In this document: in pieces, positions 1,650 through 14,859 of the stretch
Position numbering within the stretch: position 1 is the stretch's first letter
How the letters are laid out: every line of letters begins with the position of its first letter
IMG/VR virus record: IMGVR_UViG_2675903606_000023
Coordinates: 1 to 14,859 of that record
Reading direction: 5' to 3' (one strand)
DNA: 14,859 bases
Source of the DNA: a virus
Lineage: Duplodnaviria; Heunggongvirae; Uroviricota; Caudoviricetes
Position numbers and translations under genes: made by a program
The notes under the pieces: generated by a model
What the model saw: only the letters and a program-made list of their open reading frames with translations
What the model was told of the DNA's origin: nothing
Databases searched by the model: none

Positions 1650-1805
1650 GCCAAGCTCCTAAAACGTTTATCCGCGGCAGTGGCACCACACTTCAAACAT
1701 TCGTCTCACAATTTCGCGACAGTAGAAACCGTCAACATCTCGCGTCAGGTCATAGCGACTGCCATAACGCTGGTGGACCCATAGTTCAAATGCTTTATTC
1801 ACTCT

Positions 1806-2048
1806 TCACTTCCTTTTCATGGCGCGTAATTTTTTCAGGTGAGCTTCCTGCTCTGTTTCTGCCAGTATTTGTCGGTATTCCTGGTGATCAATATGTTCAA
1901 ACTGGTTGTTGAATTCACTGATGCGTACTCGACCGGAGTGTCCGTCCATGCGTCGAAAGAACACTGAGTGCTCAGTGCTGCGAGTAATCACCACAGGGTA
2001 TCCGGTCCTGTCCGTGTATATTTGCCCGCGTTGAATAAGTGTGAACAT
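1806..2048 (-). CDS. Hypothetical phage protein (80 aa from ATG at 2048; ORF is open up to 2081)
   Basis: ORF with GGGGA SD about 7 nt upstream of ATG at 2048, which lies 4 nt after the stop of the upstream gene; no recognisable family. Confidence 0.45.
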   Translation of the reverse strand: MFTLIQRGQIYTDRTGYPVVITRSTEHSVFFRRMDGHSGRVRISEFNNQFEHIDHQEYRQILAETEQEAHLKKLRAMKRK

Positions 2049-2052
2049 GTGG

Positions 2053-2682
2053 TTATCCCCAGCGGCAAATCGCAAAAACAATCAGCGCGATCGACATTGC
2101 AACACCAACAATTGCAAATGCATCAGGCCAGGTCATTGATTCACCTCCTGCGGCGGCTCTGGTAGCTGCATCCAGAACAAGGCGTTCCCTAACCACGATA
2201 AACATTCGCTCACTACAGCTTATCCAACCATCCGGAGTTACCGGAGAGTTGCCGGGTTCTTTAATGTGCAAGCGAGGCTCACCATCTTTTGGTTCAGGCC
2301 ACTGGCGCTTCATGTTGATCTTCAATTTATCTTCCATAGCAGCGGTAATTTCAGCATCACTGATACCAGCACGGCGCTGTGCATCCCACAACAGGAACTG
2401 CATATCAGCCCACTCGCTGAGATCGTCAGGTTCGGCTGCGGCTTCCAGAGCCTCTTTTGAGAGATGTTTCAGCGGACCAATGGGGCCAACGCAGCCAAAT
2501 GTGGAGTCAGACCATTTGGCATGCTCGTGGCGAATCTGTTCGCGTTCCAGTGATGCCAGTGCAATTTTTAATGCGGTAAGCATGTTGTTTTGATCTTCAT
2601 CAAGTCCGAACGGTATTTCATCCCGTGCTGACTCAATGCTGGTAATCGTTTTCTGTAGCCATTCTTTGGTAATAGTGGTCAT
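2053..2682 (-). CDS. Hypothetical early protein, DUF550/MazG-like N-terminal region (tentative) with C-terminal hydrophobic segment
   Basis: 209-aa ORF, AGGAG SD 7 nt upstream of ATG; start lies 2 nt after the stop of the Ea22-like gene; C-terminal AFAIVGVAMSIALIVFAICRWG looks like a transmembrane anchor. The DUF550 assignment is recollection only. Confidence 0.5.
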   Translation of the reverse strand: MTTITKEWLQKTITSIESARDEIPFGLDEDQNNMLTALKIALASLEREQIRHEHAKWSDSTFGCVGPIGPLKHLSKEALEAAAEPDDLSEWADMQFLLWDAQRRAGISDAEITAAMEDKLKINMKRQWPEPKDGEPRLHIKEPGNSPVTPDGWISCSERMFIVVRERLVLDAATRAAAGGESMTWPDAFAIVGVAMSIALIVFAICRWG

Positions 2683-2683
2683 C

Positions 2684-3028
2684 TCACTCTCCTTCTATGC
2701 GAATACCAGCAGCAGTCAGTGCTGCATTGACCTCATCAGCGTAGTAGTACGTTAATCCACTTGATGATTTAGCCAGCTTGAATGGTTCTGGTAACTTCAC
2801 TGTGCGGGACTCCTGTTCGTCGATACGCTGTTTTGCTTCCTCCAGTTCATCCAGCAAATCAGCGATAATATCCACTTCACGATGACGGATTTCTCTCTTA
2901 AACGCAGCCAAAGCTGCATCACAATCCTGCTCAGCATTTGGACTGTCTGGATTTTCCTGATACCACGCCAGCGTCGATTGATAGTTTTGTGCCGCCTCAC
3001 GCAATGCCTGATAGTCAATCTTGCTCAC
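2684..3028 (-). CDS. Ead/Ea22-like protein
   Basis: 114-aa ORF starting at GTG with AGGAGG SD 6 nt upstream; N-terminal MSKIDYQALREAA... resembles lambdoid Ea22/Ead-like proteins; position between xis and the immunity region matches the lambda ea22 location. Confidence 0.55.
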   Translation of the reverse strand: MSKIDYQALREAAQNYQSTLAWYQENPDSPNAEQDCDAALAAFKREIRHREVDIIADLLDELEEAKQRIDEQESRTVKLPEPFKLAKSSSGLTYYYADEVNAALTAAGIRIEGE

Positions 3029-3329
3029 TGGCTGCCTCCTTTGCCGGGATTTCTAACTTTTGAGTGGTTGTATCAAATTCAAACAACTTAACCACGTCAT
3101 CAAACAGGACATAATCACCATCAGGATCTTCAGTCATATCTGCGCCACAATCCTGACCGCACGAGTCGCAACCATCCATATCAAGCTCGTATCGCTTCAG
3201 GTTTGCGATATTTGATAAATTCAGCGCCAGTACAGCCAGGTCATAAACCTCTTCGGCAGTGACATCGCTGTTCAGTCCCATTTCATGGCGATATATGATT
3301 TTTTCTACTCGTTGTTTTGTGATCGTCAT
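3015..3329 (-). CDS. Hypothetical acidic phage protein (start uncertain: TTG 3353, ATG 3329 or ATG 3281)
   Basis: ORF 3015..3353; the ATG at 3329 has an AAGAG/GGAG SD-like purine stretch upstream; 3' end overlaps the Ea22-like start by 14 nt; acidic, Cys-containing C-terminal half. Confidence 0.45.
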   Translation of the reverse strand: MTITKQRVEKIIYRHEMGLNSDVTAEEVYDLAVLALNLSNIANLKRYELDMDGCDSCGQDCGADMTEDPDGDYVLFDDVVKLFEFDTTTQKLEIPAKEAASEQD

Positions 3330-3600
3330 TTTTCTCTTCACTCCGATATACAAGGATTACTACACCCCCTCTGCTGATTGCGCGAGCTGGATCCCCTGGT
3401 TCCATGCCGTCAATTCCGAAGGCTTCGGAAAACGCATTCATTGCCTTCTGGCGTTCATCCTGCTTACGGCGTTTATTCCATTTTTTCAGGAACAACAGCG
3501 ACAGCCACCGTCCGCTGCAGAACACGATGTAAAAATAACCAAGGAGCGCCAGGCCGACATTCAGGGCCGTTTCTATGGTTAGTTGTGAGTCAGTTGCCAT
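3283..3600 (-). CDS. Small putative membrane protein (single N-terminal transmembrane helix, basic juxtamembrane segment)
   Basis: 105-aa ORF; N-terminal hydrophobic stretch LTIETALNVGLALLGYFYIVFCSG followed by KKWNKRRKQDERQK; overlaps neighbouring genes at both ends. Confidence 0.45.
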   Translation of the reverse strand: MATDSQLTIETALNVGLALLGYFYIVFCSGRWLSLLFLKKWNKRRKQDERQKAMNAFSEAFGIDGMEPGDPARAISRGGVVILVYRSEEKNDDHKTTSRKNHISP

Positions 3601-3838
3601 TTCTTACCTGTTTAAGTAACTGGTTGAACATAACACTTAGGGGATTGCTGTATCCAAACGGCAGATTGTTTACGCAGTACAGAATCATTTTGTTTTTTTC
3701 TCCAGTTCGTACTATTAACCCATTCCACAATAACCGTGATAATTCATTACTGATAGAAGTTGCGCTTCTTCCAAGTGCGAGGGATATATCTTCTCTACTG
3801 CAATCTGGATTTTCCTGGATATACTCGATAACGGTCAT
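3590..3838 (-). CDS. Small hypothetical protein with helix-turn-helix-like segment
   Basis: ORF 3590..3880; the ATG at 3838 has an AAGGGA SD about 6 nt upstream and lies just after the stop (3849) of the upstream gene; SREDISLALGRSATSISNELSRLL resembles a winged-helix recognition region. Confidence 0.5.
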   Translation of the reverse strand: MTVIEYIQENPDCSREDISLALGRSATSISNELSRLLWNGLIVRTGEKNKMILYCVNNLPFGYSNPLSVMFNQLLKQVRNGN

Positions 3839-3848
3839 GTGGTCCCTT

Positions 3849-4430
3849 TTACTTAATATCTGTTTCGGATTGCATGCCATGAGTATTCATTTCGTTAATA
3901 ATTTCATCCAGAAGGATTTCAAGCCCTTCTCGACCCATATCTGAAAGAATGAAACCTTTATCAGGGGAAGTAGTGAGCATTTTCTGATAAAGAAACAGCG
4001 CTCTTCCCATTCCTTCAGCTTCGCCGTATTTTTGAATTAAATTCCATTCAATATACTGTTGTAAGGCAAATCGAATGGGGCCGGGATATATCGTCATAAA
4101 CCCATACATCCCGTTATATACCACGGCGTGTTCAGTTGTTCCGTGTTCATTCAGGATATCAATTGTGCCGTTCTTGTCTTCTTCTTCGTTGATGAATGCC
4201 GTCACATACAACCATCGCCACTGAGCAACCTTCATCTCAACCGGAAGTTTACCCAGTAATCCTGCTTCGTCGGCTTGCGCCAGACACTGAAGGATACGTA
4301 AACCTCGCACATTAGGAGTATCGAATTCTCCGGCATCCAGACGACGTATGGCGTCGTGATAATCAATCGTCATACTGCCAGTTCGTATACCATTGGCTGT
4401 TGCTTCAGCCTGGAATTCATCGTATTGCAT
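3849..4430 (-). CDS. Hypothetical phage protein (193 aa), function unknown
   Basis: Long ORF with GAGGAA SD about 9 nt upstream of ATG at 4430; coding-like composition; no family recognised by eye. Confidence 0.55.
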   Translation of the reverse strand: MQYDEFQAEATANGIRTGSMTIDYHDAIRRLDAGEFDTPNVRGLRILQCLAQADEAGLLGKLPVEMKVAQWRWLYVTAFINEEEDKNGTIDILNEHGTTEHAVVYNGMYGFMTIYPGPIRFALQQYIEWNLIQKYGEAEGMGRALFLYQKMLTTSPDKGFILSDMGREGLEILLDEIINEMNTHGMQSETDIK

Positions 4431-4435
4431 GATAT

Positions 4436-4630
4436 TTATTCCTCATCTTCATCTTCATCTTCATCTGCTGGTGCAATAACGTCATATCCTGCCTTTTCTG
4501 CAATAAACAGGAATGTTGAAAGAGTTCCTACAAGTTCATCGTCATGAACATGGCGAATGAATATTACTTTCCCGTTTTTGATGGTCAGCAATATTCTGGT
4601 TTGTTCGTGTTCTGCTGTTTTCTGATGCAT
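4436..4630 (-). CDS. Small protein with poly-acidic C-terminal tail (…ADEDEDEDEE)
   Basis: 64-aa ORF, GGGAGA SD 6 nt upstream of ATG at 4630; the C-terminal tail is encoded by the (TCATCT)x4 repeat at 4443..4466. Confidence 0.5.
   Translation of the reverse strand: MHQKTAEHEQTRILLTIKNGKVIFIRHVHDDELVGTLSTFLFIAEKAGYDVIAPADEDEDEDEE
4443..4466. repeat. Hexanucleotide tandem repeat (TCATCT)x4 encoding an alternating Asp/Glu tail
   Basis: Four perfect tandem copies read directly from the sequence, in frame at the 3' end of the 64-aa ORF. Confidence 0.9.
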
Positions 4631-4632
4631 TA

Positions 4633-4746
4633 TTATCTCCCGTATGCTTTACGCAGAAATAAGCAGGCAATATGCATGTAATTTTCACCGTATTGTGCAA
4701 TAAGGCAGGCGGTCTTGTGTGATGCCATATTCTTTATAAAAGTCAC
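4633..4746 (-). CDS. Candidate small ORF (37 aa from GTG 4746; 31 aa from ATG 4728), not in the supplied ORF track
   Basis: GGAGG (4758..4754) lies 7 nt upstream of GTG at 4746; the reading frame runs to a TAA at 4635..4633, 2 nt before the ATG of the 64-aa gene. Translation: VTFIKNMASHKTACLIAQYGENYMHIACLFLRKAYGR. Confidence 0.25.
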   Translation of the reverse strand: MTFIKNMASHKTACLIAQYGENYMHIACLFLRKAYGR

Positions 4747-4824
4747 AATAAAGCCTCCTGTGGATTAAGGTTGTAACAATCCCCGGCGATAAAACCGCAA
4801 TAAACGTTCAGGGCATATTTGTTG

Positions 4825-5190
4825 TTATTGCGCTAATTCTTTTTCGGCAGCAGCTTTTGTATACTCACATGCAAAACTCAGAATTTCGCTGCCGAGTGTT
4901 TTCGTTTCGTGATTACTGGACATATGTAATACCTGTGTTGCATGCAATAAATGATAAACATTTACCGCAAATGAATCAGGCTCCAGACAAATGCCTTCGT
5001 AATTATCTTGCTGTGAGGTTGTTTCTGTCATTGCTCCTGAAGTGCATGCGAGCCTGTTTTTGACAATTCTCTTTTCTCTAATCACTATATCGGCAACATC
5101 TATTGCCTTTACAACCTCCGGGAGAAGTTCCGGGTTTGTATAATCAAAGTCATCAACATGGAGAACAGTTATGTTTTCGAACTTTTTCAT
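4825..5190 (-). CDS. Hypothetical phage protein (121 aa), function unknown
   Basis: ORF with AGGAAG SD about 4-5 nt upstream of ATG at 5190; no recognisable family. Confidence 0.55.
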   Translation of the reverse strand: MKKFENITVLHVDDFDYTNPELLPEVVKAIDVADIVIREKRIVKNRLACTSGAMTETTSQQDNYEGICLEPDSFAVNVYHLLHATQVLHMSSNHETKTLGSEILSFACEYTKAAAEKELAQ

Positions 5191-5318
5191 GGCTTCCTCA
5201 GCTGACTTATATGTTCTGCTATATAGCGAGTCTCAGAAGTGTTTTCATATTGAGACTGTTTCCGCAATGATTGATAAAAATGTTCGCATGTACCTTGAAG
5301 GGCGAAGCGGCGATTATG

Positions 5319-5867
5319 TCACCATTGGTATTGGTTCTTCCGCAGAAGAGCTTCGCGAGATAAGGGGCAAACTTGTTGAGATGCGTCATGGTGTTGCTGC
5401 TCCTCACTTTTTGGTTGCTCCGGAGGAGTAACCTCACCAGTTAACAGGCACATCGGATCGCAGCCAAGAATATTTGCCAGTGGGATAAGCATACTGATAG
5501 TTGGTTCATACTCTCCGCTCTCCCACTGGATGATAATTTCTTCATCGAGATCGAGCAGCCTGGCGAGTTCGGCGGTTGTTAAGCCGCAGGCTTCGCGTTG
5601 GGTGCGAAGGTTAACCAGCCAGCTTTCAGGGAAGGATTGTTTTTGTTGTGCAGGAGAAGCAGCAGATAGAGCATATTCATGGATAAATTCCATTACCTCA
5701 ATGCCCAGTTCCTTTGAGCGAGCACAATCCAGAAGATGGAATGTGCGTACAGCACTTAGCAAATTTGCAATATTTAATGCAAAGGAATCAAGTTCTAAGC
5801 CCTTAAGCGTAACACAGCCGCAGTTGATAAAATTAGTTGTTTCTGGAGTTGCTTTTAGTGTCTTCAT
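5319..5867 (-). CDS. Protein with C-terminal XRE-family helix-turn-helix domain and uncharacterised N-terminal domain (ORF open to TTG at 5897)
   Basis: HTH_XRE-like segment LRTQREACGLTTAELARLLDLDEEIIIQWESGEYEPTISMLIPLANILG in the C-terminal half; ATG at 5867 has a GGCGGA SD-like element upstream; first gene downstream of the PL-like promoter. Confidence 0.6.
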   Translation of the reverse strand: MKTLKATPETTNFINCGCVTLKGLELDSFALNIANLLSAVRTFHLLDCARSKELGIEVMEFIHEYALSAASPAQQKQSFPESWLVNLRTQREACGLTTAELARLLDLDEEIIIQWESGEYEPTISMLIPLANILGCDPMCLLTGEVTPPEQPKSEEQQHHDASQQVCPLSREALLRKNQYQW

Positions 5868-5920
5868 ATATCCGCCAACAATTTTAAATTGAATCAAATC
5901 AAGTTATAATTGATGGTGCG

Positions 5921-5949
5921 ATATTATGTTTTGGGAAACAGGCTGTCAA
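5921..5949 (-). promoter_or_regulatory. Candidate leftward early promoter (PL-like): -35 TTGACA, 17-bp spacer, -10 TAATAT
   Basis: Minus strand reads TTGACA (5949..5944), a 17-nt spacer, then TAATAT (5926..5921); flanked by two TCAA-N7-TTGA inverted repeats (5898..5914 and 5946..5960) that could be repressor operators. Confidence 0.55.
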
Positions 5950-5978
5950 GAAAAAATTGATATCGTATATTTCAGGCA

Positions 5979-6003
5979 GAAAAAAAACGGGCAAAGCCCG
6001 TTA
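5979..6003 (-). terminator. Rho-independent terminator downstream of cI
   Basis: On the minus strand: 7-bp stem AACGGGC/GCCCGTT with a 3-nt loop (6003..5987), followed by a run of 8 U; begins 10 nt after the cI stop codon. Confidence 0.75.
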
Positions 6004-6013
6004 AAATCAAAGA

Positions 6014-6703
6014 CTAACCAAATCTGTTTATGTTGAATGGTACTGATGAGATCACTTTAGACTGGATATAAAGCAGAGCTAACCCCTCTTTTTCGATGCT
6101 CCATGGTTGATAATTGGGGTTATCAGATAACACCATGATTTTGCTTCCAATTTTTTGAAGCCTTTTCACGTAGCATTCTCCATCAAAACAAAATGCATAA
6201 ATACCATCGCCATCAAAATAAGTTACTGTCTTATCAAGAAAAAGAAGGTCGCCAGGTGAGATTGTGGGAGCCATACTGTCTCCTCTGGCGTTACCTATTT
6301 CTATATTTTTGAATGCCCGATTTCCAACAAGACGTCGGGCATATTCAGGATCAAGTTCTATTGAGCGCACTACATCTATCAAGTCACCACGGACATGAGT
6401 TCCATCACCGCAACTAAACTCAACATCAAGGACATTAAATACGACGCTATCTGTTCTTGTCTGGTGTTTCTCTTGCGAAGAAAAGGTTGGTGAGGAGTCT
6501 TCACCTAAGAACCAGGATTGTGGATAACCGCTAATCTCTGATAAATGCGCGAGCTTATCACTCCGTGGAAATGTTTTTCCTGTTGTCCAGTACTGCACTG
6601 ATTGCGCACTCACACCTAACTTGCGGGCCAGTTGAGCCTGAGTCCATCCTTTTGCTTTCAGCATCGCGGCTATTCGATTTTCCGTGTTTTTGACGTTCTT
6701 CAT
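6014..6703 (-). CDS. cI: CI-like prophage repressor (N-terminal HTH, C-terminal S24 LexA-like peptidase domain)
   Basis: N-terminal HTH (RIAAMLKAKGWTQAQLARKLGVSAQSVQYW); C-terminal autocleavage motifs GDSMAPTI (Ser) and YVKRL (Lys); AGGA SD 7 nt upstream of ATG at 6703 (ORF open to TTG at 6709); divergent from a Cro-like gene. Confidence 0.85.
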   Translation of the reverse strand: MKNVKNTENRIAAMLKAKGWTQAQLARKLGVSAQSVQYWTTGKTFPRSDKLAHLSEISGYPQSWFLGEDSSPTFSSQEKHQTRTDSVVFNVLDVEFSCGDGTHVRGDLIDVVRSIELDPEYARRLVGNRAFKNIEIGNARGDSMAPTISPGDLLFLDKTVTYFDGDGIYAFCFDGECYVKRLQKIGSKIMVLSDNPNYQPWSIEKEGLALLYIQSKVISSVPFNINRFG

Positions 6704-6709
6704 GACCAA

Positions 6710-6836
6710 ATCCTGTGGGTTTCTTTACAAGGATAAATCTTTACTTGATTTTAGTGTATTCGATCCTTTTGCAACTTGCATGTTAATTTAAACTTGATGT
6801 ATTCTTGATTTATAAAGTTAATATTGGTGCTTTGTT
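6710..6836. promoter_or_regulatory. Divergent cI/cro intergenic control region (OR/PR/PRM equivalent) with repeated CTTGAT motifs
   Basis: 127-bp AT-rich spacer between divergent cI and cro-like genes; CTTGAT occurs at 6744..6749, 6793..6798 and 6804..6809 (the last two 11 bp apart); candidate -35/-10 hexamers present but not uniquely assignable by eye. Confidence 0.6.
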
Positions 6837-7127
6837 ATGGAAGGAAATGATTACGACAAACTTCGTGCATTAATTGCGCAAAATGCCATAGCGCGAAATC
6901 TTGGTGTGACGCCGCAAGCGGTGAATCAGTGGTTTTCAAAAAGCACAATTCCTGCTCGTTTCGTTTTACGAGTATGTGAAGTAGTTGCATGGAAGGTTAC
7001 GCCTCATGGCTTAAGGCCAGATCTTTATCCTCACCCTGAAGATGGAATTCCTAACTTGTTACGCAAAAGCCTAAATCCAAGTTCACCACACAGAGCGGAT
7101 GGAATACACGCAGGAGATAAACAATGA
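6837..7127 (+). CDS. Cro-like transcriptional regulator (YdaS/Cro-type HTH)
   Basis: 96-aa ORF divergent from cI; HTH segment IARNLGVTPQAVNQWFSKSTIP; pattern resembles the YdaS-type Cro analogues of Rac-like prophages. Confidence 0.7.
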   Translation: MEGNDYDKLRALIAQNAIARNLGVTPQAVNQWFSKSTIPARFVLRVCEVVAWKVTPHGLRPDLYPHPEDGIPNLLRKSLNPSSPHRADGIHAGDKQ

Positions 7128-7831
7128 ACACCGCAATTTTTAACGGCAAAGCATCCATGACCAGCGTTGAGATCGCAGAGCTGGTGGGAAGCCGACCAGA
7201 TAGTGTTAAGAGAACTATTGAAACACTGGCTAAAAAGGGAATCATCCAATTTCCACAGACTGTGGAAATTGAGAATAAACAATCACTTGGGCCTCGCCGA
7301 TTTTCTAGCGCGTATGTATTCGAAGGTGAACGAGGTAAGCGCGACAGCATCATTGTCGTCGCACAGCTCTGTCCTGAATTCACTGCTCGCCTGGTAGATC
7401 GCTGGCGCGAACTGGAAGAACAGATCCGTAAGCCAATGAGCGAAATCGAAATGGTTGCCGCGATGGCTCTTGAAGCAGTTCGTCAGCAGAAACGGATCAC
7501 TCAGGTGGAAGAAAAAGTCAGCCACGTTGCTGAAACAGTCGAGCAAATTAAAAAGGGCACTATTCGTGAGGGCTATGCCGGATATCGCCAACTGAAAGCA
7601 AAAACCGGTTTGTCAGATGATAAATGCCGCAATCTGGTGAACGCCTATCAGATTCCTACAGACACCCATGAGTTCATGACGCCGGACGGATTGTTGTCAC
7701 GTCGCGCAATTGTTGCTGTGGAACCGTTTATGGCTGCTTTTTATCGGGTTATGGAGGAAGCAGAACCGCGAGGGACTCGCTGGTATCACCCGAAAATGGG
7801 GTTATTTCAGGTTATTGGTTGGCAGCGGTGA
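7124..7831 (+). CDS. Phage regulatory protein with Rha/antirepressor-like N-terminal DNA-binding region (tentative)
   Basis: 235-aa ORF whose ATG overlaps the cro-like stop (ATGA at 7124..7127); GGAG SD 8 nt upstream; N-terminal SVEIAELVGSRPDSVKRTIETL resembles the Rha-family HTH signature. Confidence 0.55.
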   Translation: MNTAIFNGKASMTSVEIAELVGSRPDSVKRTIETLAKKGIIQFPQTVEIENKQSLGPRRFSSAYVFEGERGKRDSIIVVAQLCPEFTARLVDRWRELEEQIRKPMSEIEMVAAMALEAVRQQKRITQVEEKVSHVAETVEQIKKGTIREGYAGYRQLKAKTGLSDDKCRNLVNAYQIPTDTHEFMTPDGLLSRRAIVAVEPFMAAFYRVMEEAEPRGTRWYHPKMGLFQVIGWQR

Positions 7832-7854
7832 AAAAAAGCCGGGAGTAACCCGGC
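7831..7854 (-). terminator. Hairpin with U-tract on the minus strand (antisense-oriented intrinsic terminator) abutting the stop codon of the 235-aa gene
   Basis: GCCGGG (7838..7843), loop agtaa, CCCGGC (7849..7854); the plus strand has A7 immediately 5' of the stem (7831..7837), so the canonical U-tract is on the minus-strand transcript. Confidence 0.5.
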
Positions 7855-8053
7855 TCACTCAACATCAATAACGGGGAGCTGTTTCGCATAAAACGGCTCC
7901 GAAACATCCAAGAACAGTTCTAAAGATATCAGCAGCTATATGATCATTTCAAGACCAAATATTGATTCTGCAATTTCGGGACGTTACACTGTCTCCGCAC
8001 CTTATAAAGCGGGTGCCGGGGGTCGCAGCCCGGAATTGTCAACGGCGATATAT

Positions 8054-8073
8054 GACGCGCCAGCGTCTTTTTT
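8054..8073 (+). terminator. Candidate weak rho-independent terminator (tR1-like position)
   Basis: GACGC-gcca-GCGTC 5-bp GC-rich stem with tetraloop, followed by T6 (8068..8073), in the untranslated spacer downstream of the 235-aa regulator. Confidence 0.4.
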
Positions 8074-8239
8074 ATCGTCCGCGCTCACGCACGCCAGAAT
8101 TATGGTGGGCTGGGCAGGGGAGCCGAAAGGCTCGCCGGTCTCCGTTGACGCCGGTACTGCGAACCCTGTTCAGTCTGCCACCAGTGAGTTTCGCAGCTCC
8201 GGTGGTGGAAGTTTTCCACAGTCAACGGAGGCTGCCATC

Positions 8240-8602
8240 ATGGCTACTGTCCCAACTTCCCCATACCTGAAAATTGAAGTTGTCAACGGCAAGGCCGTTA
8301 TTTTCTCCCTGCATGTTGCCTGCCACTTTAAGCGAATGCACCAGAACATCGTTGACAAAATCGAGTATCTGAACTGCTCACGCGAGTTTTTTACCCGCAA
8401 TTTCATACCGGGTACTTATCACATCTACGGTGACTCCCTGCGTGGTTATTACATCACTCTTGATGGCCTGATGATGCTTCAGCTTGGGTTAAGTCTGCGC
8501 ACAATGCGGTACTACGAGAGCTGCATTGAGGCATTCCATGAAGCTGAAACCAGCCTGAATCATACAGCTTTCCGCTGTAATCAATGGGAGGTGCGCCCAT
8601 GA
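8240..8602 (+). CDS. Rha-family phage regulatory protein (120 aa from ATG 8240)
   Basis: GGAGG SD 8 nt upstream of ATG at 8240; segments FKRMHQNIVDKIEYL and YHIYGDSLRGYYITLDGLMMLQLGLS match the Rha-family pattern as I remember it. The upstream in-frame extension to 7940 has non-coding-like composition and no SD. Confidence 0.55.
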   Translation: MATVPTSPYLKIEVVNGKAVIFSLHVACHFKRMHQNIVDKIEYLNCSREFFTRNFIPGTYHIYGDSLRGYYITLDGLMMLQLGLSLRTMRYYESCIEAFHEAETSLNHTAFRCNQWEVRP

Positions 8603-8832
8603 TTCGCCGCCTCGTTAATTCTCTGTATCACCGATACAACCGTTGCCCCCGTGTGGGGCAGTGGTTCGCCACCAGCGACGGTCGCGTTCTGCGGGTTTGC
8701 CTGGTCAGCACCGAAAGCCAGAAAGTTGTGTGTGAATTACTGGGGCGTAACTACACCATCAGTTACCCACTAGTGGCGTTTCAGTCCGGAAAAATGTTTA
8801 AACGCCTGGGAGGTGGCTATGCGTCCGTCTGA
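8599..8832 (+). CDS. Small hypothetical protein (77 aa)
   Basis: ATG at 8599 overlaps the stop of the preceding gene (ATGA) and is preceded by GGGAGG at a 7-nt spacing; Cys- and Arg-rich; no family recognised. Confidence 0.45.
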   Translation: MIRRLVNSLYHRYNRCPRVGQWFATSDGRVLRVCLVSTESQKVVCELLGRNYTISYPLVAFQSGKMFKRLGGGYASV

Positions 8833-9712
8833 TCTTCTGCTCGATTTTGGGCATCCGGTTGCTTATTACCCTGGGCTCGTTAAATACATGGGAAGTCCGC
8901 ACGCTGTTATTTTCTTTGGTCAGATTTTTTACTGGCAGGATAAAGCACATGCAGCGGAAGGCGTACATAAAACGCGTGAAGAGATACAACACGAAACCGG
9001 ACTTACATTTGAACAACAGGCTGTAGCGCGTAAGCATCTTGTGTCCAGAGGCATTTTGGTTGAAACCAACAAGCGTCTTGAGCACAAAATGTTCTACCGT
9101 ATAGATTGTGAGCGCCTTAATGAAATTATCAATGAAAACAATCAGTTTTCCCGAAATGGGGAAACCCGTTTTCGGGAAACTGTAAAACCCAATTTCGCGG
9201 AGGAGGGAAAGCCTTCACCGCGGACACGGGAAACCCCTCGCCGCGGTGAAGGGAAAACCAATTTCGATCTTACAGAGAATACAACAGAGATTACTTCAGA
9301 GAGTACTACAGAGAGTAAAAACACTATTGGCGCATCCGCTGACGCGTCTGCACCAGCGCGTTCTGCCCGACAGGAATATTCACCGGAATTTGAACAGGCA
9401 TGGCAGGAATATCTCAAACGTGCTGGTGGCAATTCCAAGTCAGCAGCCTTCAAAGCCTGGAAAGCACGTATCAGGGAGGGAATAAAACCGGAGAACATGC
9501 TTGATGGCGTGAAGCGGTATGCCGCCTGGGTGCGTGTCTCTGGAAATACCGGTACCCAGTTCGTGAAGCAGGCGTCGACGTTCTTTGGACCCGATCGTCA
9601 TTTCGAGGAATCCTGGCAACAGCCAGCAGCCCCCGGAGGTGGGCGGGGCAAAAGCCTCCCGATCTCGGGATTCAGTGAACAGGACTACGGCTCAACGAAC
9701 TTCAACTGGTGA
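8819..9712 (+). CDS. Replication initiator / replisome organiser (lambda O-like functional position) with internal origin-like repeats
   Basis: GGGAGG SD 5 nt upstream of ATG at 8819 (ORF open to GTG at 8813); N-terminal winged-helix-like region; low-complexity linker encoded by iteron-like DNA (9147..9316); followed by a DnaC-like loader and DnaB-like helicase. Confidence 0.7.
   Translation: MRPSDLLLDFGHPVAYYPGLVKYMGSPHAVIFFGQIFYWQDKAHAAEGVHKTREEIQHETGLTFEQQAVARKHLVSRGILVETNKRLEHKMFYRIDCERLNEIINENNQFSRNGETRFRETVKPNFAEEGKPSPRTRETPRRGEGKTNFDLTENTTEITSESTTESKNTIGASADASAPARSARQEYSPEFEQAWQEYLKRAGGNSKSAAFKAWKARIREGIKPENMLDGVKRYAAWVRVSGNTGTQFVKQASTFFGPDRHFEESWQQPAAPGGGRGKSLPISGFSEQDYGSTNFNW
9147..9316. 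repeat. Iteron-like repeat cluster (GGGAAAC-type repeats and palindromes) followed by ACAGAGA-type repeats: candidate replication origin inside the initiator gene
   Basis: GGGAAA(A/G)C at 9159, 9174, 9205, 9228 and 9251; palindromic arms TTTTCCCGAAA/TTTTCGGGAAA and CACCGCGG/CCGCGGTG flank two of the copies; ACAGAGA-like repeats at 9271..9316. Confidence 0.55.
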
Positions 9713-9731
9713 TTTTGTGGGGAGGGTGAAA

Positions 9732-10622
9732 ATGACTAATTTCCTGAACAAACAACACATGCAACACGACAAAGCGCAGTTACTTAACCGCAAGGCAGAC
9801 CTGGAAGAGGAGCTGGCATTTGTCCGTGGCGGAAAGCGTCCGTGGCGCTGTGAGCATTGGGTGCAAAGCACTGAGACGGTGTCCTGCGGGAAACACGGAA
9901 AATACACGCGCTATGTGCTGACTGGCCCGGATGTAAGGGGGAAAGCTGTCAAACGGGTGTCCGGTTGCCTGTCCTGCCTCAGTGAGGAGCTGGGCCGCGT
10001 GTATGACGAATTACGCGCCCTGAAGGTTCGTGAATTACTCGATCAGGCCGGTATTGCCCGCCGGTTCCAGGACTGTGAGTTTGAGAATTATCAGGCGGTG
10101 AATACTGACGCACAGAAAAACCTTGAAGCCTGTCAGCGCTATGCCGCTTCCTGGAAGAAATGTCTCGCTGCAGGCACCAGCATGGTCATGATTGGCAATT
10201 GTGGTACCGGTAAAAATCACCTGGCTGTATCAATGGCAAAAAATATTATTCGCCACCACCAGGCAACCATAGAAATCACGGATGTAATGCGGCTTACCCG
10301 TGCGGTGAAAAATACCTGGCGCCACAACTCTGAGCGCACTGACGATGAAGTGATTAATCATTTTGCATCGCTGGATCTGCTTATCATCGATGAGGTTGGT
10401 GTGCAGTTCGGTACGCCTGCGGAGATAACCATCCTGCAGGAAATCATAAATGCGCGTTACGAAAGCGTTTTACCGACAATTTTGATCAGCAACCTGACGT
10501 TTGAACAGCTTAAGGAATCCATTGGTGAACGGATTGTGGATCGCGTTACTGATGGTGGGCGTAACTGCCTGGTGTTTGGTTGGGAAAGCTACCGCGCGCA
10601 TATCAGAGGTGTGGCAGCATGA
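9732..10622 (+). CDS. DnaC-like helicase loader (IstB/DnaC-family AAA+ ATPase) with N-terminal Cys-rich zinc-ribbon-like region
   Basis: Walker A GNCGTGKNHLA and Walker B LLIIDEVG; Cys cluster CEHW..CGKHG..CLSCL; GGAGGG SD 5 nt upstream of ATG at 9732 (ORF open to 9585). Confidence 0.8.
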   Translation: MTNFLNKQHMQHDKAQLLNRKADLEEELAFVRGGKRPWRCEHWVQSTETVSCGKHGKYTRYVLTGPDVRGKAVKRVSGCLSCLSEELGRVYDELRALKVRELLDQAGIARRFQDCEFENYQAVNTDAQKNLEACQRYAASWKKCLAAGTSMVMIGNCGTGKNHLAVSMAKNIIRHHQATIEITDVMRLTRAVKNTWRHNSERTDDEVINHFASLDLLIIDEVGVQFGTPAEITILQEIINARYESVLPTILISNLTFEQLKESIGERIVDRVTDGGRNCLVFGWESYRAHIRGVAA

Positions 10623-12019
10623 CAAACCCGACAAATCCGGCGTGGCGTAATGATGACCTGGAAGGAGCTGTCATCGGTGCGTTTTTTCTGCGTGGGGCTG
10701 ATCCGGAAGTGATGGATATTCTGGCCACGCTTCCGGCGGATGTCTTTTTCGTGCGTCAGTACAGGGATATTTACGCGGGAATTTGCAGACAGGCCCGTGT
10801 ATCCGGCGTCATTGACCCCGTACTGCTGTGCAATGAGATGCCGGAACTTGCCCCGGTGATTACCGACACCGGACGCAAAACCTGGGTGAAGTCTTCACTG
10901 GAGCACTATGTCGCAGCGTTGCGGCGTAATGCCGTACTGCGCGATGCAGAAAAAACACTGACTGAAGCATTACAGAATTTACGTGATGCGTATACCTGTG
11001 AAGCAGCCGAGGATGCCCTGAAGGATGCGCAGAACATGATGGCCTCACTGTCGACCGGAAAGGGCGTCATTCAGCCGGTTCACATTGATGATGTCCTTCC
11101 AGAAGTGGTCGACCGTGTTGAATGCCGCAATCAGGGACTGGAGAAATCCAGGGCGCTGATGACCGGTATTGATGAGCTGGACGCAAAAACGGGCGGTATG
11201 GAGCCAGGCGACCTGGTATTCATTGCGGCTCGTCCTTCGATGGGGAAAACCGAACTTGCGCTGGATATCATCGACAAGGTGACTGAGCAGGGGCATGGCG
11301 TGCTTCTGTTCACCATGGAGATGGCGAACATTCAGATTGGTGAACGTATGGTGTCTGCTGCCGGGGGAATGCCGGTATCCCGTCTTAAGTCAGTTGCCCG
11401 TTTTGAAGACGAAGACTGGGCACGTTTCTCACAGGGCGTGGGACGAATGACGGGGCGTAATATCTGGATGGTGGACCAGGCAAACCTGACCATTGATGAG
11501 ATATGTGCAACTACGAGGCACCACCGGATGAAACACCCGGAAACGGCGCTGGTGGTGGTCGATTACCTCGGCCTGATTAAAACCCGCAGCATGGGGCGTC
11601 ACGACCTTGCTGTGGGGGAAATCTCAAAGGGACTAAAAAGCCTGGCAAAATCCGGCGGTTTTCCGCTGATTGCTCTGAGCCAGCTCTCCCGCGGTGTGGA
11701 ATCCAGACCCAATAAACGCCCCATGAACTCGGACCTGAAAAACTCAGGGGAAATAGAGGCGGATGCAGACATCATTCTGATGCTTTACAGGGATGAGGTG
11801 TACAACCCGGAGACACAGGCGAGAGGCATAGCAGAAATCAACATCACGAAACAGCGTAATGGTACGCTGGGTACCATTTACCGGCGTTTTCATAACGGGC
11901 ATTTTCTGCCTGTGGACCAGGAGAGTGCCCGGGTTCTTTCCACTCCCATGACGCCGGGCAATCCGCGCAGATACAGCAATAACCGCATGTCGGGTAGTAA
12001 AACGGAGCGTTTATTTTGA
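10619..12019 (+). CDS. DnaB-like replicative DNA helicase
   Basis: 467 aa from ATG at 10619, which overlaps the loader stop (ATGA); DnaB-type N-terminal domain and RecA-like C-terminal domain with Walker A ARPSMGKTELAL and Walker B-like VVVDYLGLI. Confidence 0.9.
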   Translation: MTNPTNPAWRNDDLEGAVIGAFFLRGADPEVMDILATLPADVFFVRQYRDIYAGICRQARVSGVIDPVLLCNEMPELAPVITDTGRKTWVKSSLEHYVAALRRNAVLRDAEKTLTEALQNLRDAYTCEAAEDALKDAQNMMASLSTGKGVIQPVHIDDVLPEVVDRVECRNQGLEKSRALMTGIDELDAKTGGMEPGDLVFIAARPSMGKTELALDIIDKVTEQGHGVLLFTMEMANIQIGERMVSAAGGMPVSRLKSVARFEDEDWARFSQGVGRMTGRNIWMVDQANLTIDEICATTRHHRMKHPETALVVVDYLGLIKTRSMGRHDLAVGEISKGLKSLAKSGGFPLIALSQLSRGVESRPNKRPMNSDLKNSGEIEADADIILMLYRDEVYNPETQARGIAEINITKQRNGTLGTIYRRFHNGHFLPVDQESARVLSTPMTPGNPRRYSNNRMSGSKTERLF

Positions 12020-12273
12020 ACAACAGAACAACCACTGTTTCACCGGAACAACTTCGTCGGCAGGCGCAGGAGATGCTTCGTTGTGCTGAACAGATGGAAA
12101 AAACGAGCGTGAAAAAAGATACGCTCCGCAAGCAGCTTACTCCGGCGCTTCGTGATCTGCTGCAGGCAAAACACCGCACACAAAAGGCGGTGGATGAGCT
12201 GGTGGATTGCGTGGCGGAACTGGAAGGACAGGTAAGCCAGTTTGAAATACTGGTGAAGGAGTTTACTGCGTGA
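12016..12273 (+). CDS. Hypothetical coiled-coil protein (85 aa), TTG start overlapping the helicase stop
   Basis: TTG at 12016 overlaps the TGA of the helicase gene (TTGA); GGAG 8 nt upstream; charged, helix-rich composition. Confidence 0.45.
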   Translation: MNNRTTTVSPEQLRRQAQEMLRCAEQMEKTSVKKDTLRKQLTPALRDLLQAKHRTQKAVDELVDCVAELEGQVSQFEILVKEFTA

Positions 12274-12318
12274 TGGCTGAATTTTTTCTTCTGCGCTCAT
12301 GCAATACCGTTCGCTGAG

Positions 12319-13314
12319 GTGACCGTGAGAGCACTACTGACCCCTGAAATTGCCCCGCGTATGGGGATCGTATTGTTCAGGCCCGGTTCAGAGCTGATGC
12401 CCCTGTTTATGCAGGGGCGTGTCCTGCTGGAGCCTGAGCCGGAACGTTATTCATCTTTTGCCAGTGGTGCCGTTCCGGCGGCATCACAACCGCTGGCGGA
12501 TGATCCTGCCGTTCGGGCCGTGTTCCGCAATGAGGCAGTGATCCGTCGTGCTGGTGGCGTGGAATGTCTTGAAAGCTGGTTACTTCGTGAAAAGGGCTGT
12601 CAGTGGCCTCATTCCAACTGGCACAGCGAGAACATGACCACAATGCGACACGCTCCGGGCGCAATCCGTCTGTGCTGGCACTGCGATAACCAGCTGCGCG
12701 ATCAGTTCACGGAACGGCTGGAATCAATGGCAACGGATAACTGTGCCCGCTGGGTGTTGTCTGTTGTGCGTCGGGATCTCGGTTTTGATGACAGTCACGT
12801 TGTGACAATGCCGGAACTGTGCTGGTGGCTGGCTCGTAATGACCTGGCTGATGCCTTACCGGAAAGTGCAGCCCGTAAGGCACTGAGATTACCGAAGCCT
12901 GTTGTGCCGTCTGTCACCCGGGAGAGTGACCTTGTTCCTTCGGTTCCTGCCACCAGCATTATCCAGGATAAAGCGAAAAAGGTGCTGGCGCTGAAAGTGG
13001 ATCCAGAGTCGCCGGAGTCTTTTATGTTACGCCCAAAACGTCGTCGCTGGGTTAATGAAAAGTACACGCGCTGGGTTAAGACACAGCCGTGTGCATGTTG
13101 TGGTAAGCCAGCCGACGATCCTCATCACCTGATTGGTCATGGTCAGGGTGGAATGGGTACAAAAGCGCATGACCTTTTTGTGTTGCCTTTGTGCAGAAAA
13201 CACCATGACGAACTGCATGCGGATACCGTGGCATTTGAAGAGAAGTATGGTTCCCAACTGGAGCTGATATTTCGTTTTATCGATCGCGCGCTGGCGATTG
13301 GTGTGCTGTCCTGA
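12319..13314 (+). CDS. DUF968-like protein with C-terminal HNH-like Cys/His motif (putative nuclease); start uncertain
   Basis: 331-aa ORF from GTG at 12319; C-terminal CACCGKPADDPHHLIGHGQGGMGTKAHDLFVLPLCRKHHDELH; located immediately upstream of Q, as in Qin-type prophages. Confidence 0.6.
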   Translation: MTVRALLTPEIAPRMGIVLFRPGSELMPLFMQGRVLLEPEPERYSSFASGAVPAASQPLADDPAVRAVFRNEAVIRRAGGVECLESWLLREKGCQWPHSNWHSENMTTMRHAPGAIRLCWHCDNQLRDQFTERLESMATDNCARWVLSVVRRDLGFDDSHVVTMPELCWWLARNDLADALPESAARKALRLPKPVVPSVTRESDLVPSVPATSIIQDKAKKVLALKVDPESPESFMLRPKRRRWVNEKYTRWVKTQPCACCGKPADDPHHLIGHGQGGMGTKAHDLFVLPLCRKHHDELHADTVAFEEKYGSQLELIFRFIDRALAIGVLS

Positions 13315-13331
13315 TTTTGTGGAGAAAGTTG

Positions 13332-13712
13332 ATGCGTGATATTCAGATAGTTCTTGAACGCTGGGGGGCATGGGCTGCAAGTGGTAACACCGGGGTGGAC
13401 TATTCTCCGATCGCTGCCGGATTCAAAGGACTTTTACCATCTGCCACTAAACCACGTCCGGCCTGCTGCGATGATGACGGACTTATCATTGAAAACTGTC
13501 TTGCTCGTCTGAAGCAGAAAAAACCTGAGGAGTATTCGCTTCTCATTGCTCATTATTTGTTGCGAATATCAAAAAGACAGATAGCCAGGACGAGAAAGAA
13601 AAGCGAAAAAGCAATACGAATTGAGATGCAGATAGCCGAAGGGTTTATTGACGGATGTTTGTCTGTGCTGGGGGTAAGACTGGAGATGGACGACTGGCTG
13701 CTAAAAAAGTAA
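13332..13712 (+). CDS. Late-gene antitermination protein Q (QuuD-like family)
   Basis: 126 aa from ATG at 13332 (GGAG SD 7 nt upstream; ORF open to TTG at 13317); MRDIQIVLERWGAWAA...IAAGFKGLL...CCDDD...EGFIDGCLSVLGVRLEMD matches the QuuD-type Q pattern from memory. Confidence 0.6.
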   Translation: MRDIQIVLERWGAWAASGNTGVDYSPIAAGFKGLLPSATKPRPACCDDDGLIIENCLARLKQKKPEEYSLLIAHYLLRISKRQIARTRKKSEKAIRIEMQIAEGFIDGCLSVLGVRLEMDDWLLKK

Positions 13713-13767
13713 AAAATGATTAGTGCGGTCCGCAAAAAGTATGTCAGTATGTTAAGAGTGGTTACTT

Positions 13768-13788
13768 CGCCCGCGAGCGGGTTTTTTT
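13768..13788 (+). terminator. Rho-independent terminator about 55 nt downstream of Q (tR'-like)
   Basis: GC-only stem CCCG/CGGG with tetraloop CGAG (13770..13781), followed by T7 (13782..13788). Confidence 0.6.
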
Positions 13789-13910
13789 ATGGCTGAAATC
13801 GGTCCAGTACAGTAAACGTGCTGGTGGCGGTGAATACCTGTCTTTCAGCTTGCTGGCTTTTTCGACAAGAGTTATTGGTGTGTCACGTTAACCGAAAAAG
13901 GGAAAAAGAC

Positions 13911-14108
13911 ATGCTGAAACAGCAGGATATGACAGAAACCGCCAGAGTGGTGTTTAATGAATTAAGCGTCACCGAACCGGCGACAGTCGGGGAGATTGCG
14001 CAGAATACTTACCTTTCACGCGAACGCTGTCAGTTAATACTGACCCAACTTGTTATGGCGGGTCTGGCAGACTATCAGTTCGGTTGTTACAGACGCCTTC
14101 CGCAGTGA
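13911..14108 (+). CDS. Small winged-helix/HTH-like protein (65 aa)
   Basis: AAGGG SD 8 nt upstream of ATG at 13911 (ORF open to GTG at 13818 without SD); ATVGEIAQNTYLSRERCQLILTQLVMAGL resembles an HTH recognition region; bracketed by intrinsic terminators on both sides. Confidence 0.5.
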   Translation: MLKQQDMTETARVVFNELSVTEPATVGEIAQNTYLSRERCQLILTQLVMAGLADYQFGCYRRLPQ

Positions 14109-14118
14109 AGGCTTTTTT
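14095..14118 (+). terminator. Rho-independent terminator overlapping the stop codon of the small wHTH gene
   Basis: 6-bp stem GCCTTC/GAAGGC with 6-nt loop (14095..14112), followed by TTTTTTATTT. Confidence 0.65.
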
Positions 14119-14259
14119 ATTTGTGGTAAATGGGCGGCTGGTGGGTGTTAGGGGCACTCACCAGCCATCTGCTCATGCGTTGTGGTCACAAGCAAACCTC
14201 AGGCCCATCTGCTTTGCGCAAAAGCGGTATGAGCCTATCAGAGAAGTGCTTATTGATCT

Positions 14260-14859
14260 ATGGCTAATACTGTAAAAATATCCAGTTGTGAGTTAATCAA
14301 CGCCGACTGCCTGGAATTTATCCGGTCGTTACCCGAAAATTCTGTTGACCTGATAGTCACGGACCCGCCGTACTTTAAAGTGAAGCCTGAGGGCTGGGAT
14401 AACCAGTGGAAGGGCGACGATGATTACCTGAAGTGGCTGGACCAGTGTCTGGCGCAGTTCTGGCGGGTGCTGAAACCTGCCGGAAGTCTTTACCTGTTCT
14501 GTGGTCATCGCCTGGCATCTGATATCGAAATCATGATGCGTGAACGCTTCAATGTGCTGAACCATATTATCTGGGCGAAGCCGTCCGGACGCTGGAACGG
14601 GTGCGACAAGGAAAGCCTGCGGGCGTATTTTCCGGCCACAGAACGCATTCTGTTCGCGGAACATTATCAGGGGCCGTATCGTCCGAAAGATGATGGCGAT
14701 GAGGCGAAGGGCAGGGCACTGAAACAGCATGTGATGGCCCCGCTGATTTCTTACTTTCGTGATGCGCGTGCTGCTCTTGGGATAACGGCAAAACAGATTG
14801 CAGATGCCACAGGAAAGAAAAACATGGTGTCGCACTGGTTCAGTGCCAGTCAGTGGCAG
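14260..14859 (+). CDS. DNA methyltransferase (N6-adenine or N4-cytosine class, DPPY motif), 5' part only; continues beyond the window end
   Basis: Open frame from ATG at 14260 (first ATG after an in-frame TGA at 14254..14256) to the window edge with no stop; translation contains SVDLIVTDPPY, resembling YhdJ-like beta-class amino-MTases; absent from the ORF track because it is incomplete. Confidence 0.8.
   Translation, partial: MANTVKISSCELINADCLEFIRSLPENSVDLIVTDPPYFKVKPEGWDNQWKGDDDYLKWLDQCLAQFWRVLKPAGSLYLFCGHRLASDIEIMMRERFNVLNHIIWAKPSGRWNGCDKESLRAYFPATERILFAEHYQGPYRPKDDGDEAKGRALKQHVMAPLISYFRDARAALGITAKQIADATGKKNMVSHWFSASQWQ

Follow-up and report, generated by a model that had tools for sequence, protein, structure and literature searches.

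The candidate origin and its gene

The 14.9-kb stretch of DNA analysed here (the window; positions 1 to 14,859 of IMG/VR virus record IMGVR_UViG_2675903606_000023) is, by gene content, a lambdoid prophage. The element under study is a block of repeats at 9136-9319, within a gene that heads a module in which genes for a DnaC-like helicase loader and a DnaB-family replicative helicase follow in that order, an arrangement that bears out its initial annotation as a replication initiator gene. It is probable (about 80%), judging from the sequence, that 9136-9319 is the vegetative replication origin of an Eru7-type lambdoid prophage, located within its own initiator gene, in the part that encodes the linker; a candidate origin inside this gene had been proposed in the initial annotation, and the comparative evidence set out below supports the proposal. 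The features of the module are as follows, with protein residues numbered from the GTG at 8813, where the mechanical open reading frame (ORF) of the initiator begins.

8819..9712, + strand: initiator gene, 297 aa (ORF list; RefSeq coding sequence (CDS) WP_001247841.1, 'hypothetical protein')
8852..9142, + strand: N-terminal winged-helix domain (N-domain), residues 14-110, motif QIFYW (AlphaFold2)
9136..9158: unit 0 of the 23-bp register, with an inverted core GGGAAAAC on the - strand at 9145-9152; left arm of the palindrome 9146-9180
9159..9181: iteron 1, GGGAAACCCGTTTTCGGGAAACT, 23-bp register, starting in codon frame 1
9182..9204: iteron 2, degenerate, GTAAAACCCAATTTCGCGGAGGA, frame 0
9205..9227: iteron 3, GGGAAAGCCTTCACCGCGGACAC, frame 2
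9228..9250: iteron 4, GGGAAACCCCTCGCCGCGGTGAA, frame 1, centre of the palindrome 9212-9252
9251..9273: iteron 5, GGGAAAACCAATTTCGATCTTAC, frame 0, extending into the first 12-mer, with GATC at 9266-9269
9272..9319: four tandem 12-mers, ACAGAGAATACA, ACAGAGATTACT, TCAGAGAGTACT and ACAGAGAGTAAA, candidate unwinding or helicase-loading element
9320..9326: mosaic junction, with N-domain, iterons and 12-mers to its left and an exchangeable C-terminal domain (C-domain) to its right
9371..9622, + strand: helical C-domain, residues 187-270 (AlphaFold2)
9732..10622, + strand: DnaC-like helicase loader gene (Pfam IstB_IS21, NCBIfam DnaC-like; RefSeq CDS)
10619..12019, + strand: DnaB-family replicative helicase gene (Pfam DnaB_C, E 5e-74; RefSeq CDS)

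Iterons in exact 23-bp phase

The sequence GGGAAA occurs on the + strand at 9159, 9174, 9205, 9228 and 9251, and on the - strand at 9147-9152. The initial annotation described five copies of GGGAAA(A/G)C within about 100 bp; repeats are present where it placed them, but the literal 8-mer matches three copies (9205, 9251 and the inverted copy at 9145-9152), the remaining GGGAAA copies reading GGGAAACC (twice) and GGGAAACT, and the true repeat is a 23-bp unit. Five such units, starting at 9159, 9182, 9205, 9228 and 9251, are in exact phase, a regularity which the annotation had missed; the unit at 9182 is degenerate (GTAAAACC). The information content of the unit is focused on GGGAAA, CC and TCG, giving a core of GGGAAAnCC…TCG. 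An iteron-type theta origin embedded in its initiator gene calls for three or more direct repeats spaced by some two helical turns; here there are five, at exactly 23 bp. Over lags of 6-40, no periodic signal in the whole window exceeds the lag-23 autocorrelation at 9146 (0.65); the highest background value is 0.48, and none of 5000 shuffles matched the observed one. The sequence GGGAAANCC, allowing at most one mismatch, is enriched in the window (29 matches versus 12.5 ± 4 expected).

The claim that two of the copies are centred in palindromes also holds, in that both palindromes were found, the first with arms at 9147-9161/9165-9179 (87% complementary) and the second with arms at 9212-9230/9234-9252 (84%). 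The second (CCGCGG; CACCGCGG…CCGCGGTG) was rejected as a conserved feature, being absent from relatives with N-domain identity of 85% or less, and is, therefore, probably incidental. Dyad symmetry of the iterons is clear in Klebsiella phage Kp4886-1 (GGAAAGTCCATTCC) and weak in the clade of the window. A terminator-like match on the - strand (9164-9147) is the iteron palindrome itself, and the promoter/terminator scan gave nothing above shuffle expectation. An antisense ORF at 9142-9498 (- strand) was taken as a by-product of mechanical ORF listing.

An ordered 12-mer array beside the iterons

Directly after the iterons lie four head-to-tail copies of a 12-mer with the consensus ACAGAGAnTACn. 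An ACAGAGA-rich stretch had been recorded here in the initial annotation and resolves into this array (9272-9319); what had been missed is that the stretch is, by comparison with other phages, the most conserved part of the structure and common across phyla. Autocorrelation over the array is 0.77 at lag 12, versus 0.12 at lag 11 and 0.05 at lag 13, making it the third-ranked periodic signal in the window. The block has a guanine plus cytosine (GC) content of 35%, versus 0.53-0.56 in the flanks, its top (mRNA-sense) strand is 67% purine, and its stability z-score in the window is 2.3; it thus provides the low-stability region sought next to the iterons. In 72% of 130 distinct loci, including those from hosts of 60-66% GC, the stability minimum of the initiator gene, taken over 40-bp windows, falls on the 12-mer block, with a median stability z of 2.6 relative to ±1.5 kb, a result that is partly built in, because most of these loci were retrieved by the 12-mer pattern.

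The number of units differs among E. coli genes that are otherwise 98-99% identical, by one or two whole 12-bp insertions after 9271 and 9296. Several near-identical E. coli copies of the gene are truncated (126-594 nt) and are presumably decayed prophages. There is no cluster of GATC in the origin; the single GATC (a Dam site; 9266-9269) lies at the exact join of the last iteron and the first 12-mer. The junction TTCGATC(C/T)TACAGAGA is repeated in enterobacterial relatives and is not present in members from Acinetobacter, Burkholderia, Staphylococcus or Bacillus, a distribution which hints at control by Dam/SeqA in Dam-bearing hosts.

Repeats of this type might instead be operators for the product of their own gene, acting in autoregulation, as a transcriptional roadblock or in copy-number 'handcuffing', with the real origin elsewhere in the prophage. 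Plasmid iterons are reported also to serve autoregulation and handcuffing (PMC5397158), and intragenic binding sites could block transcription of the gene. Such a role in place of an origin is, however, highly improbable, since the 14.9-kb window contains no second cluster of the iteron motif, the repeats always adjoin a low-stability repeated element, as in true origins, and their position equals that of the origins proven for lambda (PMC7466680) and SPP1 (PMC6316719). The two roles, in regulation and as an origin, can coexist.

Constraint on the DNA rather than on the peptide

The DNA of the repeats was said in the initial annotation to encode a low-complexity linker, and indeed the iterons and 12-mers encode residues 111-170, inside a segment (residues 111-186) predicted by AlphaFold2 to be disordered and to link the N- and C-domains. 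This predicted disorder, together with the presence of in-frame (T/S)ExT peptide repeats in most homologues, could be taken to mean that the repeats (…GETRFRETVKPNF… TENTTEITSESTTESK) are a mere low-complexity protein linker with no DNA function. That reading is scarcely credible, being already contradicted by the period of the repeats, their codon usage, the behaviour of the iteron core and a plasmid copy.

With respect to period, 23 bp is not a multiple of three and the units fall in frames 1, 0, 2, 1 and 0, so they cannot form a peptide repeat. Comparison of the iterons among related phages, one of the checks proposed for the candidate origin, was made with 36 homologous loci found by protein similarity, among them 30 viral contigs (50-85% identity) as well as phages that infect Burkholderia, Klebsiella, Acinetobacter, Pasteurella and E. 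coli; 23 bp is the best lag directly after the N-domain in 34 of the 36, with arrays of 3-8 units. A Pasteurella phage has a 13-bp-period version of the 12-mer (ACACTAGATTAC, twice), which likewise cannot be an in-frame peptide repeat.

With respect to codon usage, synonymous positions are frozen: the Glu codons of the 12-mers are GAG in 84/84 cases, versus 301/692 elsewhere in the same genes, and the Thr codons are ACA or ACT in 171/175, versus 41% elsewhere, even in phages of 64% GC. Among 30 distinct, near-identical E. coli copies of the initiator gene, 9 of the 11 substitutions in the N-domain are at third codon positions; in the iteron array, 9 of 12 are at codon positions 1 or 2, and none lies inside a GGGAAA core. 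Close relatives therefore accept changes to the amino acids of the linker, but not to the GGGAAA core, i.e. what is conserved is not the peptide.

A copy outside any initiator gene is present in the Bacillus plasmid pBSG3 (NC_014104.1), an 8.4-kb rolling-circle, mobilizable plasmid, of which about 170 bp (720-888) match, at 83% identity, the origin region that lies inside a gene of Bacillus phage PM1. The fragment comprises three and a half iterons and three 12-mers, is without an initiator ORF and has its frame broken by single-base indels. It could be a decoy that titrates the phage initiator, or a means of co-replication by the phage. The 12-mer query also matched three other 8.4-kb B. velezensis plasmids. 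Sequence comparison thus indicates that selection acts on the DNA of the repeats and not on the encoded peptide.

Phylogenetic spread of the layout

The superfamily, as defined here, combines in one ORF an N-domain homologous to the QxxYW winged-helix domain, repeats phased at 21-24 bp and, immediately downstream, at least two tandem ACAGAGAnTAC 12-mers; the window has all three features. A scan of viral contigs for ACAGAGANTACNACAGAGA gave at least 120 matches, 117 of them at evaluable loci. Among the matches listed, the best upstream lag is 22-24 bp at 105/117 loci (23 bp at 86), the 12-mers lie 130-200 codons into the ORF, and 103/109 N-domains, the window type included, fall in one single-linkage cluster.

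When the 12-mer block was compared by blastn with GenBank phages, 121 records were matched, including Staphylococcus phage 37, Bacillus phages PM1 and BtCS33, and a Synechococcus phage, in each of which the matched initiator gene encodes a QxxYW N-domain and contains three ACAGAGAnTAC units and 4-5 iterons spaced at 22-23 bp. The record OR842880.1 ('Xanthomonas phage SU1') has an initiator, iterons and 12-mers resembling those of Staphylococcus phage 37, the proteins being near-identical over the first ~145 residues, and may be mislabelled or contaminated.

GTDB species genomes were scanned with a stricter pattern of 20 specified bases, for which about one chance match is expected in the 596 Gb scanned (both strands, uniform composition). 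Among the matches listed, 98/116 loci have a lag of 21-24 bp and 92/110 ORFs match the N-domain profile. Verified members come from the Gamma-, Beta- and Alphaproteobacteria, Desulfobacterota, Bacillota (including Negativicutes), Cyanobacteria, Chloroflexota, Fibrobacterota, Nitrospirota and Gracilibacteria; matches in an archaeal metagenome-assembled genome, a Saprospirales metagenome-assembled genome and a long TETT protein repeat were assigned outside the superfamily. Among 5,426 complete E. coli genomes, the window's module of N-domain plus origin is present in 101, and a match of any kind in 1,416, about a quarter; in 7/7 sampled rows besides the top one the match is to the 12-mer block only.

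Distant members found by protein similarity, i.e. Lactobacillus mv4, S. aureus phiIPLA88, Bacteroides B124-14 and a Flavobacterium phage, keep iterons at 22-23 bp followed by 12-mers or variants of them (four 12-mers in mv4, ACAGATA-type variants in the Bacteroides and Flavobacterium phages). A peptide trace of the 12-mers is present near residue 140 in 77 of 130 full-length family representatives. A tblastn search with a 4F5-type N-domain gave no classical lambdoid phage among the matches listed. Overall, by sequence comparison, the 12-base element is nearly unchanged in putative phage initiator genes of at least ten bacterial phyla.

The composition of the 12-mers raises the possibility that the region is an origin, but that they act via transcription, a purine-rich rightward early transcript over 9272-9319 forming a stable RNA-DNA hybrid (R-loop) that opens the duplex or primes synthesis. 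This would be a strong form of the 'transcriptional activation' of the lambda origin. The purine skew of the mRNA-sense strand fits such a role, as does the location of the block, which is always on the coding strand of an early gene and hence always transcribed one way; lambda requires transcription at or near its origin, and its O protein contacts RNA polymerase, as reported in PMC3017604. A general need for purines would not, however, keep ACAGAGAnTAC at about 88% identity across phyla, and the element is retained in the pBSG3 fragment, for which no initiator transcript is evident. We regard action through an R-loop as unlikely. For the fixed sequence of the 12-mers we prefer the idea, by analogy with plasmid initiators (see below), that a conserved part of the initiator would make sequence-specific contact with them.

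A proposed specificity module and a proposed generic module

Iteron similarity rises with N-domain identity (Spearman (Mantel) rho 0.44; 0/2000 permutations) among 43 representatives of less than 90% N-domain identity, i.e. repeats and putative DNA-binding domain co-vary, whereas the first two 12-mers are 87-93% identical whatever the N-domain distance. The co-variation is in line with the view in the initial annotation that a repeat sequence different from that of lambda implies an initiator-origin specificity of its own. The iteron cores are:

window clade: GGGAAAnCC…TCG
Klebsiella phage Kp4886-1: GGGAAAGTCCATTCC
mEp460_4F5 group: GGTCAAAATGA
Pantoea phage AH07 group: AGGGCAAATTGCACTCATCGA

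Directly next to the 12-mers, on their right, comes a mosaic junction. Among close relatives, substituted columns rise there from 3-30 to 67 per 100 bp, and phiP27-type genes, whose initiators have an unrelated HTH_36 N-domain and different repeats, share only 9323-9645 of the window (92-94% identity). The C-domain is common to the phiP27, ST64B, mEp460 and Vibrio phage initiators, which have other N-domains. The C-domains found joined to the 12-mers are of three kinds or more, i.e. the window type, Phg_2220_C and one like the C terminus of lambda O. From these comparisons, N-domain, iterons and 12-mers appear to be inherited as one block, with the C-domain swapped after ~9323, as a lambda-type origin-specificity module. 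Such a layout is predicted by a lambda-style arrangement, in which N-domain and iterons would provide specificity and the C-domain would fit the helicase-loading partner.

The initiators with an HTH_36 N-domain carry iterons of their own, with a period of ~24 bp (GGTAGTGCAnnAnATTCAC), followed by three copies of a different 12-bp repeat, GAACCAGTCAAn, which is common to E. coli, Salmonella and Vibrio phages (mEp460 (L086), 1290-1445; ST64B (L087); Vibrio phage D72 (L090), 1365-1470). It may be that iterons followed by about three family-specific 12-mers are a general design.

The position of the junction, the association with several C-domains and the variable copy number of the 12-mers among close relatives might also mean that the 12-mers are kept mainly as a recombination 'linker', promoting the shuffling of modules at the boundary between N-domain plus iterons and C-domain, and are not a working part of an origin. 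This is very unlikely, because phages of Staphylococcus, cyanobacteria, Chloroflexota and E. coli recombine with one another too rarely to keep 85-97% identity, a linker has no need of a tandem 12-bp period or a stability minimum, and the isolated pBSG3 fragment has no flanking modules to shuffle.

The initiator protein

The AlphaFold2 model, built with 36 homologues, has an N-domain with a predicted local distance difference test (pLDDT) score of 70-85, including helices at 55-62 and 66-78 and a beta-hairpin at 82-97; this domain is presumed to bind the iterons. The C-domain, for which the PHROG labels are 'DnaD-like helicase loader' and 'primosomal protein', is presumed to contact the helicase or its loader. 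PHROG 270 and 9773 ('replication initiation') match the initiator. Searches of Pfam, NCBIfam and PDB sequences gave no family for either domain; at E ≤ 0.01 the protein has no Pfam-A family, the sole hit at E ≤ 1 being a chance-level match to Tti2. Membership of the lambda O family (Phage_rep_O) was rejected, there being no Pfam or NCBIfam match, so the label 'replication protein O' carried by related genes is one of functional analogy; DnaD_N (PF21984) and HTH_36 (PF13730) were rejected likewise for the window protein, and HTH_36 is matched by the mEp460 and phiP27 initiators.

A full-length query was used for homologue collection, because the N-domain alone gave 16 partial proteins. A single-sequence search with the N-domain matched 3,674 clusters in a 50%-identity library, in which it is always N-terminal, in proteins of ~250-390 residues.

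A conserved tail, …(D)YSQIP(A/H)GFRG, ends the initiators of mEp460, ST64B, 4F5, AH07, POCJ13 and Kp4886-1. No helicase or loader gene is annotated beside the initiator in mEp460, ST64B, 4F5 and AH07; in POCJ13 a DnaC gene follows, and the Kp4886-1 record is without annotation. The window initiator, followed by DnaC-like and DnaB genes, ends instead in …STNFNW. The YSQIP-type tail may recruit a host factor.

Proposed mechanism and points against it

We infer binding, melting and helicase loading as the steps at this origin from the sequence and its relatives. The N-terminal winged-helix domain would bind the five 23-bp-phased iterons to form a nucleoprotein complex, which would then open the adjoining low-stability, purine-skewed array of four 12-mers; the C-domain would recruit the phage DnaC-like loader and the DnaB-type helicase, the genes of which are immediately downstream. 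The iterons would set phage-specific recognition of the origin, and the 12-mers would be a generic element of the whole initiator superfamily.

As a tentative extension, the 12-mers may act sequence-specifically in the opening of the origin or the loading of the helicase, being recognised, in single-stranded or distorted form, by the conserved part of a very large, unannotated winged-helix initiator superfamily, and so be a phage counterpart of the DnaA-trios of oriC and the 13-mers of RK2; together with iterons of 21-24 bp they may constitute the most widespread class of phage and prophage origin, undescribed so far.

Several observations weigh against the assignment of 9136-9319 as the origin. 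No DnaA box or integration host factor (IHF) consensus is present near it; a DnaA box with at most one mismatch is absent from 8800-10000, the sole near match being at 8731. A second AT-rich patch (9100-9149, GC 0.28), immediately to the left of the iterons, where the coding region of the N-domain ends, could be an alternative site of initial melting. The mean pLDDT of the whole initiator model is moderate (61.6), and in Foldseek comparison with the PDB the N-domain resembles winged-helix folds weakly (E 0.05-0.4), including the DnaD N-domain 2v79 (E 0.09, template modelling (TM) score 0.57 on the target), a result used as fold class and not as homology. The DNA-pattern searches are circular with regard to the sequence of the 12-mers and their low stability, and the sequences compared are phylogenetically related, so the nominal statistics of the comparative tests are overstated. 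In the open-access literature no description, experimental or other, of this origin family was found, although there may be an earlier one elsewhere; the 12-mer strings and the peptides TEITTE, TENTTE and TETTTE were not found in this context in that literature.

With an initiator named and a candidate origin placed to the base, the replication of Eru7-type Shiga toxin (Stx) phages, and hence toxin gene dosage, become directly testable. The layout extends from E. coli through Staphylococcus, Bacillus, cyanobacteria and Chloroflexota to candidate-phyla bacteria, so that a 20-base DNA pattern can flag putative phage origins in unannotated genomes. It is unusual for a short sequence within a protein-coding linker to be near-constant across phyla, and the combination of variable iterons with the proposed invariant melting element would be a clean system in which to ask how iteron initiators melt DNA.

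Prophage context

The other prophage genes of the window are:

75-1361, - strand: integrase gene
6014-6709, - strand: CI-type repressor gene
6837-7127: Cro/YdaS-like gene
7124-8602: Rha and Ash/Rha genes, before the initiator gene
7124-7831: Phage_pRha match (Pfam)
7940-8602: Phage_ASH plus pRha match (Pfam)

Eru7 is defined by Rha and Rha/Ash genes directly beside cI (PMC8951638). In the window these genes adjoin cI, and the initiator gene is near-identical (97.1%) to that of the Eru7 representative Stx2_14040 (LC567818.1). Phages that convert to Stx1a or Stx2a, Stx2_14040 among them, carry 'replication protein O' genes to which it is 96-99.8% identical. The segment compared with the chromosome of E. 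coli B19374 (8813-9330) is 100% identical, and it is in that strain that RefSeq annotates the initiator, loader and helicase coding sequences given above. Stx phages of the Eru7 type are reported as the most widespread type in Europe (PMC8951638). Eru typing rests on gene content; the replication proteins are called unknown in the descriptions of the types, from which the origin is absent (PMC8951638; PMC8044961). The order of initiator, loader and helicase genes in the window matches that described for other phages (PMC9144972).

Two Rfam matches above the gathering threshold lie within the 'ash family' ORF (7940-8602 in both the mechanical list and RefSeq), i.e. the isrK Hfq-binding small RNA (7997-8073, +, 58.7 bits) and the C4 antisense RNA (8098-8185, +, 78.8 bits). 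Together they place an antirepressor-control cassette of the P1/P7 C4 type a short way upstream of the replication module, and the 'ash family' CDS may, in its 5' part, be RNA genes rather than coding sequence. Both matches of the Rfam scan are upstream of the origin, within which there is none.

Comparison with known origins

Origins inside initiator genes are already known, and the element is, therefore, not new in principle. For the initiator family, the strict 21-24-bp phasing and the near-invariant 12-mer array found across phyla, no open-access description was found, and an earlier description is possible.

The lambda origin lies in the middle of gene O and consists of iterons and an AT-rich tract (PMC7466680). 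The candidate origin of the window shares with lambda ori, and with the origins of O type in the lambdoid Stx phages 933W and P27, a place in mid-initiator gene and iterons followed by an AT-rich unwinding tract, which in the window is a putative one. The parallel with lambda drawn in the initial annotation thus stands with respect to layout, but not with respect to the protein, which is not a homologue of lambda O (no Pfam hit). The same division of labour is proposed for the window as in lambda, where N-domain and iterons confer specificity and the C-domain recruits the helicase-loading partner (PMC7466680). By contrast with lambda, the iterons of the window are in strict 23-bp phase and of different sequence, the tract is an ordered array of conserved 12-mers rather than a generic AT-rich run, and the presumed partners are a DnaC-like loader and the prophage's own DnaB rather than P.

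In Bacillus phage SPP1, oriL occupies the same interdomain position inside gene 38, and its function was reconstituted in vitro (PMC6316719). The SPP1 system (G38P organizer, G39P loader, G40P helicase) resembles the window in having direct repeats together with an AT-rich element in the initiator gene, between N- and C-domains, and in gene order; the C-domain of G38P is of the Phg_2220_C kind, which is present in several members of the superfamily. G38P/oriL was nevertheless rejected as a member of the superfamily, in that its N-domain misses the profile, its repeats have an 11-bp period and ACAGAGAnTAC 12-mers are lacking.

The origins of RK2 (oriV) and F (oriS) differ in being intergenic and in using DnaA boxes, a different Rep family and unrelated repeats; the window has no such boxes (none in 8800-10000), and its initiator is in no plasmid Rep family. 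With respect to how the 12-mers might act, however, RK2 oriV is the closest analogue, having an iteron-binding initiator beside an unwinding element made up of ordered repeats, as the iterons and repeated 12-mers of the window would be. The unwinding element of oriV contains four repeated 13-mers, the sequence of which, and not AT content alone, is needed, and which the initiator binds in single-stranded form; sequence-specific contact is made by TrfA and RepE with the repeated 13-mers and 8-mers of their respective unwinding elements (PMC4081077).

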